This document shows, in pieces, positions 2,626 through 23,768 of a stretch of 24,776 nucleotides of DNA. Position 1 is the stretch's first letter; every line of letters begins with the position of its first letter. Source of the DNA: a virus (taxonomy: Duplodnaviria > Heunggongvirae > Uroviricota > Caudoviricetes); the IMG/VR virus record IMGVR_UViG_2778261457_000006, positions 1-24,776 of that record; one strand, written 5' to 3'. The notes below the pieces were generated by a model that worked only from the letters and a program-made list of their open reading frames with translations, did not search any database and was not told where the DNA came from. Position numbers and translations under genes: made by a program.

Positions 2626-2700
2626 GGGTCAGTCGTATAAAGGTCATTACGGAAGGCTGTTAACCTTCTTATCGTGGTTCGAGTCCACGCTGTCCCGCCA
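2626..2700 (+). tRNA. tRNA-like gene, predicted anticodon GTT (Asn), slightly degenerate
   Basis: Hand-folded cloverleaf: acceptor gggtcag/ctgtccc (6 of 7 pairs, one T-T), perfect anticodon stem gaagg/ccttc with loop ctGTTaa, perfect T-stem cgtgg/ccacg with T-loop ttcgagt, discriminator g and encoded CCA 2698-2700. D-stem has only 3 pairs. Confidence 0.55.
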
Positions 2701-2705
2701 AATAT

Positions 2706-2781
2706 GCTGGTTTAGCTCCAATGGTAGAGCAGTCGCCTTGTAAGCGAATGGGTAGCGGTTCAAGTCCGTTAACCAGCACCA
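2706..2781 (+). tRNA. tRNA-Thr (anticodon TGT)
   Basis: Hand-folded cloverleaf: perfect 7-bp acceptor gctggtt/aaccagc, D-stem gctc/gagc with GG in the D-loop, anticodon loop ctTGTaa (U33, A37), T-arm agcgg-ttcaagt-ccgtt, discriminator a and encoded CCA 2779-2781. Confidence 0.75.
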
Positions 2782-3023
2782 TAACTGAGCCGTAGCCACT
2801 GGCTATCCTGAACTCATCAGTGATAGTTATGCTGCAGCCTTCTACACATGACTTTCGTGAAAGCGGGCGGCAAGAGGTTGCGCTAACAACCTCCTGCCGT
2901 TTTGCCCGTGCATATCGGTCACGAACAAATCTGATTACTAAACACAGTAGCCTGGATTTGTTCTATCAGTAATCGACCTTATTCCTAATTAAATAGAGCA
3001 AATCCCCTTATTGGGGGTAAGAC

Positions 3024-3347
3024 ATGAAGATGCCAGAAAAACATGACCTGTTAGCCGCCATTCTCGCGGCAAAGGAACAAGGCATCGGGGCAATCCTTGC
3101 GTTTGCAATGGCGTACCTTCGCGGCAGATATAATGGCGGTGCGTTTACAAAAACAGTAATCGACGCAACGATGTGCGCCATTATCGCCTGGTTCATTCGT
3201 GACCTTCTCGACTTCGCCGGACTAAGTAGCAATCTCGCTTATATAACGAGCGTGTTCATCGGCTACATCGGTACTGACTCGATTGGTTCGCTTATCAAAC
3301 GCTTCGCTGCTAAAAAAGCCGGAGTAGAAGATGGTGGAAATCAATAA
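3024..3347 (+). CDS. S: holin S (107 aa) with dual-start motif Met1-Lys2-Met3
   Basis: Translation [34 protein letters not shown]... matches recalled lambda S107/S105. ATG AAG ATG dual start with an upstream cccc..gggg hairpin (sdi-like) at about 3003-3016. Confidence 0.93.
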
Positions 3348-3807
3348 TCAACGTAAGGCGTTCCTCGATATGCTGGCGTGGTCAGAGGGAACTGATAATG
3401 GACGGCAGAAAACCAGAAATCATGGTTATGACGTCATTGTAGGCGGAGAGCTATTCACTGATTACTCCGATCACCCTCGCAAACTTGTCACGCTAAACCC
3501 AAAACTCAAATCAACAGCTGCAGGTCGTTACCAGCTTCTTTCCCGTTGGTGGGATGCCTACCGCAAGCAGCTTGGCCTGAAAGACTTCTCTCCCAAAAGC
3601 CAGGACGCTGTTGCGCTGCAGCAGATTAAGGAGCGTGGCGCTTTACCGATGATTGATCGTGGTGATATTCGTCAGGCTATCGACCGTTGCAGCAATATCT
3701 GGGCTTCATTGCCGGGAGCTGGTTATGGTCAGTTCGAGCATAAGGCCGACAGTCTGATTTCAAAATTCAAAGAAGCAGGCGGAACGGTCAGAGAGATTGA
3801 GGTATGA
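3331..3807 (+). CDS. R: endolysin R (lytic transglycosylase, 158 aa)
   Basis: Translation [49 protein letters not shown]... matches recalled lambda R. Overlaps the S end as in lambda. Confidence 0.93.
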
Positions 3808-10064: not shown

Positions 10065-10976
10065 ATGGACCAAACCACCGACATTCAGGCTTCTGAAGAG
10101 TTAACCCTGCCCGGCAATCATGCAGCGGCATCTGCTGATGGCTTAGTTGTCGATAATGCCAACGACAACGCAGGTCAGGAAGAAGGCTTCGAGATTGTCC
10201 TGAAAGACGATGAGAAACCAAAACAAGACCCGGCAACTAATGCTGAATTTGCCCGTCGCCGCATCGAACGCAAACGCCAGCGTGAGCTTGAGCAGCAGAT
10301 GGAAGCGGTTAAGCGAGGGGAGTTGCCGGAGCACCTGCGGGTGAACCCTGAGTTACCAAAACAACCAGACCCTAACGATTATCTTTCCGAAGATGCACTG
10401 GCTAAGTACGACTATGACCAGAGCCGCGCACTGGCTGCCTTCCAGCAGGCAAACAGTGAATGGCAGATCAAGGCTATGGACGCACGAAGCCAGGCTGTCG
10501 CCGAGCAGGGTCGCAAAACTCAGGAGTTCACCCAGCAATCAGCGCAATACGTCGAGGCAGCCCGTAAGCACTACGACGCAGCGGAAAAGCTCAATATCCC
10601 TGACTATCAGGAGAAAGAGGATACATTCATGCAACTGGTGCCGCCAGCAGTCGGTGCCGACATCATGCGCCTCTTCCCGGAGAAATCCGCCGCTCTCATG
10701 TATCACCTTGGTGCTAATCCTGAGAAAACACGCCAGTTGCTGGCGATGGACGGGCAATCCGCGCTGATTGAACTCACTCGACTGTCAGAACGTTTAACTC
10801 TCAAGCCTAGAGCCAAACCTGTTTCAGAAGCCCCGCTACCTGATGAACCCATTCAGGGACACGCTGTTGCTGCAAATATCTCTGCGATTGAAAAGCAGAT
10901 GGAAGCGGCAGCAAACAAAGGGGATGTAGAGACATATCGCAAGCTCAAGGCGCAACTGAATAAAGGAATTCGATAA
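10065..10976 (+). CDS. scaffolding protein (P22 gp8-like, 303 aa)
   Basis: Match to recalled P22 gp8 (..[29 protein letters not shown].., C-terminal ..[13 protein letters not shown]..). Confidence 0.9.
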
Positions 10977-12271
10977 TGGCATTAAATGAAGGTCAACTGG
11001 TCACGTATGCTCTGGATGAAATCATCGAAACCGTCCAGAACCTGACGCCAATGGCGTCCAAAGTGACAAAATACACCCCTCCGGCAGAATCCATGCAACG
11101 TTCAAGCAACACCGTGTGGATGCCTGTTGAGCAGGAAGCGCCAACTCAGACTGGCTGGGATTTAACTGGCAAAGCAACCGGGATTCTGGAACTCTCCGTG
11201 AAATGCAACATGGGCGATCCGGATAACGATTTCTTCGAGCTTCGTGCAGATGACCTGCGTGATGAGCGTTCTTACCGTCGCCGCATCCAGGCATCCGCCA
11301 AAAAATTGGCGAATAACATTGAGTCAGCAATTGCCAAACAGGCAACCGAAATGGGCTCACTTGTTGTTCACGATACCCGCGCAATTGGTCCATCTACTGG
11401 CCTGTCTGGCTGGGATTTTGTGTCTGATGCAGAGCGACTGATGTTCTCCCGCGAACTCAACCGCGACATGGGAATCAGTTACTTCCTGAACCCTGACGAT
11501 TACCGCAAAGCAGGCCGCAACCTGGTAGATGGTGACATCTTTGGGCGCGTTCCTGAAGAAGCGTATCGTAACGGTACTATTCAGCGTCAGATTGCTGGCT
11601 TTGATGAAATTCTTCGCTCACCGAAACTTCCGGCAGTTACCAAGTCAACCGCTACTGGTGTAACTGTTTCTGGTGCGCAGAAGTTTAAGCCGCAGGCATA
11701 CACCCTTGATACCGATGGTAACAAAGAGAACGTCGACAACCGTGTTGCAACGGTGACCGTATCCTCAACCACCGGATTTAAGCGCGGCGACAAAATCAGC
11801 TTCACTGGTGTGAAATTCCTGTCTCAGATGGCGAAGAACGTGCTGACTGATGATGCTACTTTCTCAATCACCCGTGTGATCGATGGTACTCACATAGAAA
11901 TCACGCCGAAGCCGATTGCGCTTGATGACGCTTCACTGACAAAAGAAGAGAAGGCTTACGCTAACGTAAACACCTCTCTTGCTGATACCACTCCGGTAAA
12001 CGTTCTGAACGTGGCAACAACCACCGCTAACGTGTTCTGGGCTGATGACTCAATCCGTCTGCTGTCTCAGCCGATCCCGGTAACCCATGAACTGTTTGCT
12101 GGCATGAAAACGTCTTCCTTCAGCATTCCTGGTATTGGTGTTAACGGCATCTTCGCAACGCAGGGAGATATCAACACCCTGTCTGGTAAGTGCCGTATTG
12201 CTGTGTGGTATTCAGCATGTGCTGTACGACCAGAGGCAATTGGTGTTGGTCTGCCTAACCAGACTGCGTGA
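10976..12271 (+). CDS. major coat protein (P22 gp5-like, 431 aa)
   Basis: Match to recalled P22 coat protein (MALNEGQ..., ..[11 protein letters not shown].., ..GTIQRQ.AGFD.., C-terminal ..[13 protein letters not shown]). Confidence 0.93.
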
Positions 12272-12279
12272 TAACCAGA

Positions 12280-12301
12280 GGGAGCTTCGGCTCCCTTTTT
12301 T
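12280..12301 (+). terminator. rho-independent terminator after the coat gene (GC stem with UUCG tetraloop)
   Basis: gggagc-ttcg-gctccc followed by TTTTTT, 9 nt after the coat stop codon. Confidence 0.75.
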
Positions 12302-12315
12302 ATCTGGAGACAAGC

Positions 12316-12594
12316 ATGACACACATGATCTTTCGTCATGGCGACATGAAGAAGTGGAAAGGCGTTGGCTACGACTTTGAAATCGTGAAAGCCGAAGAGC
12401 TTCAGGAATATCTGGATGCTGGCTGGTTTTCACATCCTGATGACCTTTTGAAGGATGTTGCAGAGCCAGAGCAAGAGCCAGAGCCAGAGCCAGAGCCAGA
12501 GCAAGAGCCAGAGCCAGAGCAAGAAGAAAAACAGCGTAAAAAGCCTGGTCGAAAACCTAAGGCGGCAGCAGATGAACCTGACAACGAAGGGTGA
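12316..12594 (+). CDS. small hypothetical protein (92 aa) with acidic (EP/EQ)n repeat linker and basic C-terminus
   Basis: GGAGA (12306-12310) then ATG 12316. Translation [92 protein letters not shown]. Its 3' end overlaps the gp4 start by 23 nt. Not recognised. Confidence 0.5.
12463..12522 (+). repeat. tandem hexanucleotide repeat, 10 units of GAGCCA/GAGCAA
   Basis: Directly visible 60-bp array gagcca gagcaa gagcca gagcca gagcca gagcca gagcaa gagcca gagcca gagcaa. It produces repetitive artefact ORFs in the other frames and on the opposite strand. Confidence 0.9.
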
Positions 12595-22377: not shown

Positions 22378-23532
22378 TCATGCTTTTCCGTCAATGAAAT
22401 CAGCCCACCACTGCATCATTTCTCTGCGCTTATCCAGATACTGAGCATGGTTGTAAATCCCGCGCACAGATCCACCGTTGGCATGCGCCAGTTGAACCTC
22501 AATCGCGTCAGCAGGCCATTCGTGCTCGTTCATAATCGTGCTGAATTCATGCCTGAATCCGTGTCCGCTTTCCAGACCCTCATATCCGATTTGTTTGATC
22601 ACAAGTAGTACAGCGTTCTCGCAAATTGGCTTCTTCTTATCGTTGCGCCCGGCAAAAACATACTCTGATACTGGTTTAGTGATTGAGCTTAGCGTAGTGA
22701 GAAGTTCAACCACCTGGTCTGACATCGGGACCACATGAATTTTGCGTCCCTTCATCACACTGGCGTCGATGGTGATAATCCTGTTTTCAAAATCGACGTT
22801 CTTCCATTGCATGGAGCGAAGCTCTTTCGTTCTTAGGGCTGTGTAGCGTAAAACTTTGGTCGCAATGAGCGATACGATACTTCCTGAAAATGTTGCCAGT
22901 GCTTTGTTGAATGCAGGGATCTGGTCTGCTGGAAGAAACGGGAAGTTCTTCTTGCGGTATCCTTTCATGGCGTCTGCAAGGTCAGGTGCCGGGTTATATT
23001 TAGCCCTTCCGGTGACAATAGCGTAACGGAAAACCTCGCCGCATCTTCTGCGGGCTTTGTTGGCTCGTTCCATTGCACCGCGATCTTCAAATCTGCGGAT
23101 TACTTCCAGCAGTTGCATCGGCTCAATATCCTGAATCTCAAGACCGCCGATGATGGGTAAAATGTCGTCATCAAACATTTTGGCAAGCTCAGTTGCATAG
23201 CCTACTGACCATACTTGCTTCTTGTGCTCGTACCATTCCTTGTAAATTGCACTAAAGGAATTGTTGTTAGACGAAGCCTTTTTCGCTTTTACCGGATCGA
23301 TGCCAACCGAGATGTCTTTCCTCGCGGTCCATGCTTTATCTCTTGCCTCCTGCAAAGTCATTAGCGGATATTTTCCTACGGTCAGGATTTTCTCCTTACC
23401 GTCAATCTTGTAGCGAAGCTGCCATACCTTTTTCCCTGACACAGGGACATAAAGGTACAGGCCATTACCATCGAGTAGGCGGTATGGTTTTTCTTTCGGC
23501 TTTGCTGCTTCAATCTGCTTAACGGTGAGCAT
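22378..23532 (-). CDS. int: tyrosine integrase, P4 family (about 384 aa from ATG 23532; ORF extends to GTG 23568)
   Basis: N-terminus MLTVKQIEAAKPKEKPYRLLDGNGLYLYVPVSGKKVWQLRYKIDGKEK is the P4-type arm-binding domain. C-terminal ..GHGFRHEF.. and ..LAHANGGSVRGIYNHAQY.. carry the catalytic His/Arg/Tyr region. Resembles my recollection of E. coli K-12 IntS next to argW. Confidence 0.9.
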   Translation of the reverse strand: MLTVKQIEAAKPKEKPYRLLDGNGLYLYVPVSGKKVWQLRYKIDGKEKILTVGKYPLMTLQEARDKAWTARKDISVGIDPVKAKKASSNNNSFSAIYKEWYEHKKQVWSVGYATELAKMFDDDILPIIGGLEIQDIEPMQLLEVIRRFEDRGAMERANKARRRCGEVFRYAIVTGRAKYNPAPDLADAMKGYRKKNFPFLPADQIPAFNKALATFSGSIVSLIATKVLRYTALRTKELRSMQWKNVDFENRIITIDASVMKGRKIHVVPMSDQVVELLTTLSSITKPVSEYVFAGRNDKKKPICENAVLLVIKQIGYEGLESGHGFRHEFSTIMNEHEWPADAIEVQLAHANGGSVRGIYNHAQYLDKRREMMQWWADFIDGKA

Positions 23533-23693
23533 GGGTAAAAATCCGGTGGGTAAAATTATTTTATCCACTTTTTACCCGTCATGGAGTGCGGCTGTCAACG
23601 ATCTGACGCGAACCATTACGAACTGTGAATCTGCGGAAGGCTTGATATTCAGGGAATTTTGCGGACTGGTACGGATGGGAGCGAACTGATAAA

Positions 23694-23768
23694 TGGTGTC
23701 CCCTGCAGGAATCGAACCTGCAATTAGCCCTTAGGAGGGGCTCGTTATATCCATTTAACTAAGAGGAC
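23694..23768 (-). tRNA. argW: tRNA-Arg (anticodon CCT), host argW
   Basis: Reverse complement GTCCTCTTAGTTAAATGGATATAACGAGCCCCTCCTAAGGGCTAATTGCAGGTTCGATTCCTGCAGGGGACACCA folds as a canonical cloverleaf with anticodon loop CTCCTAA. Matches recalled E. coli argW. Confidence 0.9.

Follow-up and report, generated by a model that had tools for sequence, protein, structure and literature searches.

The small gene that lies between the coat gene and the head-tail adaptor gene of P22-like phages has been known since the P22 late region was sequenced and is uncharacterised. It was noted by Eppler et al. 1991 and later described as gene 6 of phage ε34, with an internally deleted homologue in P22 and a role stated to be unknown (Villafane et al. 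2008; PMC2629481); its counterpart in phage L, orf186, is listed as 'function unknown' (PMC8022706), and the matches retrieved by our literature search for P22 orf69 were unrelated ORF69s. Here we describe a 92-codon open reading frame (ORF) of this kind, bearing a hexanucleotide repeat, in a stretch of 24,776 nucleotides (positions 1 to 24,776 of IMG/VR record IMGVR_UViG_2778261457_000006; hereafter the window) that represents one end of a P22-like (Lederbergvirus) prophage of Escherichia coli. Comparison with its relatives identified this small ORF, located at 12316-12594, as the E. coli-type short form of the P22 orf69/ε34 gene 6/L orf186 family within the late operon, and revealed that its (GAGCCA)n tract gains and loses whole units by replication slippage, the frame never being broken. 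The identity, the architecture and the slippage mechanism of the small ORF are well supported, and our confidence in them is very high at the least.

A short form of the P22 orf69 family

The sequence-only reading of the window had noted no equivalent of the small ORF in P22, which turned out to be wrong. P22 orf69 (NP_059631; NC_002371 6135-6344) likewise follows the gene 5 stem-loop and precedes gene 4, and both proteins match the same PHROG family of unknown function, phrog_1175 (E 4.5e-31 for P22 orf69 and E 3.5e-32 for the window ORF, residues 1-90 of which fall on profile positions 1-72). The P22 product, MKIAIYKPGGSIMVWGVMAQMKVIDSSELPEYVKDGWLDHPSKLLPVEADDVKPRKGRKPKAVSDADKD, can be aligned with that of the window in two parts, the N-terminal module and the basic tail, and shares the invariant G, G, GW and HP residues and a tail that reads KPRKGRKPKA in P22 and KKPGRKPKA in the window. 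It differs in being 69 aa long and about 35% identical, in having no hexamer repeat but only a PVEADDV linker, and in overlapping the following gene by 17 instead of 23 nt. The second group of relatives comprises the long forms, i.e. ε34 gene 6, ST64T orf-186, L orf186 and the E. coli and Enterobacterales 'WDGH domain-containing proteins' of PHROG 3769, which occupy the same slot. They begin with a homologous N-terminal module and a disordered, acidic stretch, continue with a WDGH domain (PF25311) and end in the same tail, which is preceded by a linker that is short or, in many of them, of the (EP)n kind. Unlike the window protein, they carry the WDGH domain, of about 100 aa, between the N-terminal module and the linker; only the first 51 residues of the window ORF match phrog_3769, and PF25311 gave no match in it even at E values up to 10. 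The long forms P0187, P0190 and P0193 possess an N-terminal module of the window's subtype. Since the long forms share the N-terminal module and the tail, the window ORF is a WDGH-less short form of a modular family.

A large protein collection contained 321 homologues of the small ORF protein, and a search that started from P0134, the most divergent of the small homologues, recovered 2 proteins only. The search against protein families that had been proposed from the sequence succeeded with phrog_1175; the Pfam and NCBIfam scans of the ORF returned compositional matches only (procyclin, TonB), and PADLOC none. Relatives were found in Shigella, Citrobacter, Kluyvera, Buttiauxella, Yersinia and Rahnella, each of them flanked by a coat gene of the P22 type and a homologue of gp4. 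The slot between the coat hairpin and gp4, with overlap at the 3' end, is shared by the window, P22, ST64T and 90 related loci, and a Kluyvera locus (L092) has no overlap; the order coat gene, hairpin, small ORF and overlapping gp4 recurs in the P22, ST64T, Citrobacter, Buttiauxella, Yersinia and Rahnella loci. In the Kluyvera locus the small ORF stops 3 nt before gp4, and an extra 78-aa ORF (positions 2768-3004 of the locus) is placed between the coat gene and the orf69-like gene. Complete E. coli genomes carry the locus in 217 of 5426 cases (about 4%), and the window-type gene is also present in the sequenced phages IME10, APC_JM3.2, Dewey, Louie, Bas106 and HZ41, the APC_JM3.2 record already annotating a repeat region.

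The ratio of nonsynonymous to synonymous substitution rates (dN/dS) over the 48 N-terminal codons ranged from 0.05 to 0.34 across six genera, at dS values of about 1-2 that are near or beyond saturation. Such low ratios argue for strong purifying selection on the amino-acid sequence of the N-terminal module. The features first noticed in the sequence, namely a 92-codon ORF with its own ribosome-binding site following the coat gene terminator, an N-terminal domain, a basic C-terminus and an end overlapping the gp4 start, were all recovered: the ATG at 12316 is preceded at 6 nt by GGAG and, further upstream, by the hairpin at 12277-12298, the domain is supported by structure prediction, the basic C-terminus is present in the translation, and the 23-nt overlap with gp4 (ATG 12572, +1 frame) is kept in relatives. 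Homologous ORFs with a conserved frame were likewise found in related phages, the Glu-Pro frame being open in every locus examined.

As observed or predicted, the protein consists of an acidic folded module of 48 aa, an extended or disordered (Glu-Pro)n spacer and a short basic tail. AlphaFold2 (AF2) modelled residues 1-40 with predicted local distance difference test (pLDDT) scores of 86-93, placing a beta-hairpin at 2-14 and 17-25, a helix at 26-34 and a short helix at 41-48. Alignments showed residues G9, G16, G36, W37, H40 and P41 of the module to be invariant, and the window ORF has both the conserved residues of the module and the basic G-R/P-K-P-K tail. The linker (pLDDT about 48) and the linker plus tail (about 50) were modelled with low confidence, the linker being predicted as disordered or extended. 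An AF2 model of the long form, built on a 45-sequence alignment, contains the same N-terminal module as a separate unit, with disordered segments tethering the WDGH domain. The whole protein has a net charge of -13 and a pI of 4.5 (4.54), with -4 in the N-terminal module, -12 in the linker and +7 in the tail patch. This tail is nearly invariant within the E. coli type. The window, P22, Citrobacter and Sf6 use different synonymous codons for its G-R-K(-P-K) residues, and the adjacent AAGGCGG, the likely gp4 Shine-Dalgarno, is invariant in DNA; because the G-R-K codons vary in this way between lineages, the tail is constrained as a peptide. A PDB sequence search with the N-terminal module profile gave nothing significant (the best matches, ETS factors at E 0.1, were taken as chance), and PDB fold searches retrieved no solved structure resembling either this module or the WDGH domain.

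Slippage of the hexanucleotide tract

The ten GAGCCA/GAGCAA units reported from the sequence at 12463-12522 are exactly there and in frame, seven of the former and three of the latter. Tandem Repeats Finder described the tract with period 6, 10.7 copies and a score of 107, and the 60-nt repeat pattern, which the window contains once, was absent from all 100 shuffles. The linker was measured in the 88 loci where its DNA could be delimited, its length including the terminal GAAGAA. In all of them it was a multiple of 6 nt, from 18 to 180 nt, i.e. 2-29 units as against 10 in the window; one further protein cluster has 1 unit, and P22 and a Citrobacter prophage have 0. Between invariant flanks, the lengths of the homologous proteins step by two residues from 74 to 98 aa. 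GAGCCA makes up 535 of the 685 units in these loci, the remaining ones being single-base derivatives of it (GAGCAA, GAGACA, GATCCA, GAACCA and GAGCTA) that yield EQ, ET, DP and EL. The comparison of repeat copy number across relatives thereby bore out the prediction that linker length would vary between isolates by in-frame hexamer steps.

The pace of this variation can be read from 15 groups of loci whose 168-nt and 170-nt flanks are identical, each group carrying 2-3 linker lengths; identical flanks around different lengths imply that the changes are recent and frequent. As a control, the repeat-free Sf6-type gene found in the same slot measured exactly 183 nt in 80 of 80 loci (98-100% identical). 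The tract constitutes a natural series of spacer lengths that could be used in tether-length experiments. In the E. coli homologue P0015 a 13-residue tandem duplication is located within the N-terminal module. The 29-unit allele of E. coli ECONIH6 (positions 1717-1962 of locus L006), whose frame is intact, is called an incomplete pseudogene by RefSeq.

Candidate functions of the small ORF product

Arguing by analogy, we tentatively propose that the product of the small ORF is a late, non-essential accessory protein that acts at DNA packaging or head completion through bridging similar to that of λ gpFI, a protein that is reported to connect the capsid with the terminase-DNA complex and whose requirement can be bypassed (PMC13595911). 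It would be made together with the head proteins as a dispensable accessory factor, its basic tail holding nucleic acid and its N-terminal module contacting a protein partner, so that DNA would be linked to the packaging or head-completion machinery, the job that gpFI performs from the equivalent genomic slot. The (EP)n spacer would behave as a passive extended tether and, being only a tether, its length would be free to drift. Ribosomes that complete the ORF would stop 23 nt into gp4 and would probably add to the translation of the latter.

Several observations weigh against this proposal. Homology to gpFI was rejected (hhalign 0.1%; phrog_92, the PHROG of gpFI, is different and is unmatched by the window ORF), and no fold likeness to the C-terminal domain of gpFI (2LSM) was found. 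The Pfam AT-hook (PF02178) had no match in the window tail, K-K-P-G-R-K-P-K, which is only AT-hook-like; the canonical RGRP core appears in some homologues only (P0134, P0175 and P0188), and many others end in PGPKPK without Arg. DNA binding by the acidic orf69-type N-terminal module seems doubtful as well, because the module carries a net charge of -4 and its similarity to DNA-binding proteins, described below, is weak. Furthermore, near-identical coat and gp4 genes flank N-terminal modules that are about 32% identical, with or without WDGH, and cassette-like swapping of this kind is more in keeping with an accessory role than with co-evolution as part of the assembly apparatus. The P22 homologue has been reported as non-essential (Eppler et al. 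1991, cited in PMC2629481), and in another protein the WDGH domain found in the long forms is joined to a Tad2-like anti-defence domain, which points to a different kind of role.

These last observations lead to the alternative that the slot hosts a swappable anti-defence or host-interaction module in which WDGH is the effector and the N-terminal module, spacer and tail are a chassis that may direct the protein to DNA or even have it packaged in the capsid and co-injected, the window ORF then being an effector-less form retaining some chassis function. We consider it rather unlikely. The gene is indeed mosaic, WDGH being present or absent between near-identical head gene clusters, it is dispensable in the laboratory according to the same report (PMC2629481), its linker is hypervariable, and WDGH (PF25311) occurs widely in unrelated phages and, in one protein, P0242, is joined to Tad2-like (PF11195) and crAss001_48 (PF21825) domains. 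Nevertheless, the window ORF lacks WDGH and its N-terminal module is still under strong purifying selection, late-operon expression would come too late for defence evasion unless the protein was packaged, PADLOC found no match, and a domain fusion is guilt by association only. P0242 is from Serratia fonticola, its Tad2-like part being of the anti-Thoeris type and its PF21825 part crAss001_48-related; WDGH is also joined to crAss001_48 in P0218, P0224 and P0247. Our literature search found no paper on a 'WDGH domain'.

An unlikely function is that of a nonspecific or sequence-independent DNA or RNA binder lacking a specific assembly partner, in which a homing-endonuclease-like module and an AT-hook-like tail would, for instance, coat or condense replicated DNA or bind late mRNA. 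Apart from the small ORFs, a full-database phmmer search with the N-terminal module returned GIY-YIG and HNH homing endonucleases (E 3e-7 to 1e-3, summed over 4-6 repeats). The matched module, ...K.I..EELQ.YLD.GW..G, is repeated 4-6 times in their C-terminal regions alongside NUMOD3 motifs. In homing endonucleases of the I-TevI type the C-terminal region is the DNA-binding part. This match, to which hhalign assigned a probability of 96.4%, and the conservation of the basic tail in all lineages speak for nucleic-acid binding. However, the similarity covers 21 columns only, the part played by the module in the endonucleases is itself putative, the N-terminal module is net acidic in a protein of pI 4.5, and the tail had no Pfam AT-hook match. 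A Pfam scan detected no GIY-YIG or HNH nuclease domain in the window ORF.

The overlap with gp4 suggests a third alternative, improbable in our view, in which the reading frame acts in cis, its translation restarting ribosomes after the hairpin and delivering them to gp4 while the peptide matters little. A strong ribosome-binding site does follow the hairpin directly, and in almost all lineages the end of the ORF overlaps the gp4 start by 17-26 nt: the E. coli type shares 23 nt with gp4, P22 and others share 17 nt, and Sf6 gene 6 (phrog_3251), which is not homologous and yet occupies the slot, shares 26 nt. This conserved overlap is compatible with coupled translation. On the other side stand the strong amino-acid constraint on the N-terminal module (dN/dS about 0.1) and on the tail, the 3-nt gap in Kluyvera, and the fact that gp4 has its own Shine-Dalgarno (SD) sequence, TAAGGCGG, 6-7 nt before its ATG and conserved in the window, P22, ST64T, Sf6 and HK620. 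No occluding RNA fold was found around the gp4 start (z = 0.23), and Rfam gave no match in the region. A role in cis may coexist with a function of the protein.

It is also tempting to speculate that the slot encodes a modular delivery chassis, made of the N-terminal module, a spacer of adjustable length and a basic tail gripping DNA, that would ride the DNA into the capsid and be co-injected, carrying in the long forms a WDGH cargo akin to the Tad2-like anti-defence fusions, the short form being cargo-less and of slippage-tuned reach; we hold this for distinctly improbable. A phase-variable contingency switch was rejected: repeat number does vary but all 88 linkers are in frame and expression is not toggled, and as the unit is 6 nt long slippage cannot switch the gene off. 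That the locus is a contingency locus in the broader sense, where changes in the repeat are selected to switch or tune a phenotype instead of being neutral polymorphism, is very improbable too. Copy number is extremely variable even between loci with identical flanks; against this, the 6-nt unit never turns the frame on or off, alleles of 0-29 units all come with otherwise intact genes, suggesting weak constraint, and the protein shows neither a signal peptide nor a location at the surface.

The notion with practically negligible probability, which we reject, is that the small ORF is not a separate gene and that its DNA encodes an N-terminal extension of gp4 that would start at ATG 12455 and pass through the repeat as Ser-Gln: in the window the gp4 frame has no stop between this ATG and the gp4 start, and the GenBank records for IME10, Dewey and Louie annotate it so, but a hexamer repeat free of stop codons leaves all three frames open, the extension meets a stop or lacks an ATG in 14 of 99 loci whereas the Glu-Pro frame is open in all examined, no SD lies at a usable distance from ATG 12455, and gp4 homologues begin with M-x3-4-K-G-D-L-V. 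Loci in which the extension is closed include P22, the ST64T-like long forms, most loci of other genera and the E. coli-type locus L081, where a GAGCTA unit creates a TAG. The small ORF is omitted and gp4 extended through the repeat in IME10 (positions 3184-3789 of locus L004), in Dewey (3184-3777 of locus L002) and in Louie; these public records, and the RefSeq entry for the 29-unit allele, need correcting.

Layout of the window and comparison with known systems

The features of the locus are compiled in Table 1. Genes in the window follow the order lysis genes, terminase, portal, scaffold, coat, gp4, gp10, gp26, gp14, ejection proteins, tailspike and an integrase-like ORF. Two phage-borne tRNA genes, for Asn and Thr, sit 5' of the lysis genes. 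At the right end a tRNA-Arg(CCT) gene adjoins a 396-aa reverse-strand ORF, which is probably the integrase; together with a probable argW attachment site it would mark the prophage boundary. The tail-needle ORF encodes 282 aa, as in Sf6 (849 nt), compared with 233 aa (702 nt) in P22 and HK620, which suggests an extra C-terminal domain in the window needle. Phage Dewey, otherwise syntenic, has an HNH endonuclease gene inserted between the scaffold and coat genes (positions 1116-1637 of its locus, minus strand). RefSeq names the gp4 homologue 'packaged DNA stabilization gp4 family protein'. The hairpin following the coat gene has a 9-bp stem with 5 GC pairs, a TTCG loop and then a T-run, and is annotated likewise in P22, Sf6 and HK620.

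Table 1. Coordinates of the small ORF, its neighbours and other features in the window.
Feature	Position	Strand	Remarks
tRNA-Asn(GTT) gene	2626-2700	+	
tRNA-Thr(TGT) gene	2706-2781	+	
Coat gene	10976-12271	+	Stop directly 5' of the hairpin
Terminator-like hairpin and T-run	12277-12304	+	Stem-loop itself 12277-12298, AGAGGGAGC-TTCG-GCTCCCTTT, UUCG loop
Shine-Dalgarno GGAG of the small ORF	12306-12309	+	6 nt before ATG 12316, read from the sequence
Small ORF, 92 aa	12316-12594	+	P22 orf69/PHROG 1175 family, short form without WDGH domain
N-terminal folded module, aa 1-48	12316-12459	+	Beta-hairpin, helix, G-W..H-P motif, short helix (predicted)
Ten hexanucleotide units, acidic spacer	12463-12522	+	7 GAGCCA (Glu-Pro), 3 GAGCAA (Glu-Gln)
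GAAGAA directly 3' of the hexamer units	12523-12528	+	Counted in the linker length
C-terminal tail	12529-12591	+	Basic Lys/Arg/Pro patch, then residues from the gp4 ribosome-binding site and first codons
TAAGGCGG, likely gp4 Shine-Dalgarno	12558-12565	+	Inside the P-K-A-A codons of the small ORF
gp4 homologue, head-tail adaptor, 166 aa	12572-13072	+	+1 frame; first 23 nt overlap the small ORF
gp26-like tail-needle ORF, 282 aa	14490-15338		
396-aa ORF	22378-23568	-	Probable integrase
tRNA-Arg(CCT) gene	23694-23768	-	

Our analysis unites P22 orf69, ε34 gene 6/L orf186 and hundreds of E. coli 'hypothetical proteins' in one modular family made up of the N-terminal module, an optional WDGH domain, an optional (EP)n spacer and the basic tail; it also adds a quantified repeat polymorphism, annotation corrections and two weak functional leads. 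If the role in packaging or head completion is true, P22 would gain a missing accessory factor, and if the link of WDGH to anti-defence is true, a structural operon would harbour an accessory hot spot at this slot. As regards the repeat itself, the locus is an example of repeat polymorphism and not a new kind of system.

Among the described systems, the Glu-Pro/Lys-Pro rod of TonB and the (EP) repeats of trypanosome procyclin resemble the window protein in having an acidic EP run followed by basic K/P residues, a physical analogy from which the spacer is expected to be extended and polyproline-II-like. The window ORF differs from them by having no membrane anchor, signal peptide or TonB C-terminal domain, and each of these weak matches scored far under the cut-off of its family. 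Membership in the TonB family was rejected, the best score being 14.4 bits against a cut-off of 315 and confined to the composition-driven EP/K-P stretch. Closer in position are Sf6 gene 6 and HK620 hkbT (PHROG 3251), small genes in the same slot that end in a KRGRK tail, overlap the gp4 homologue and contain the TAAGGCGG SD as well. They differ by having no repeat and an invariant length (183 nt in 80 loci), and the N-terminal part of the Sf6 protein shows no detectable homology to the family (hhalign 2%; different PHROG), in a comparison limited by the Sf6-type profile, no better one being buildable from 80 loci that are 98-100% identical.

This universally kept and uncharacterised gene thus stands at the coat/adaptor junction of well-studied phages, where λ has the packaging chaperone FI. 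The λ gene for gpFI (PHROG 92, PDB 2LSM) likewise lies between a UUCG hairpin after the capsid gene, visible in the λ sequence 3' of gene E, and the head-tail adaptor gene, the arrangement being E, UUCG hairpin, ribosome-binding site, FI and FII. Both λ (positions 1462-1502 of locus L102) and the window (12277-12315) present a GC-rich UUCG hairpin and a strong ribosome-binding site, followed by the gene of a small acidic protein. At 132 aa, gpFI has a pI of 4.55 and a net charge of -12, as compared with 4.54 and -13 for the window protein, and an acidic flexible middle segment joins its modules. It differs in having neither a basic tail nor a repeat, and its function has been shown by experiment whereas the window ORF is known from its sequence.

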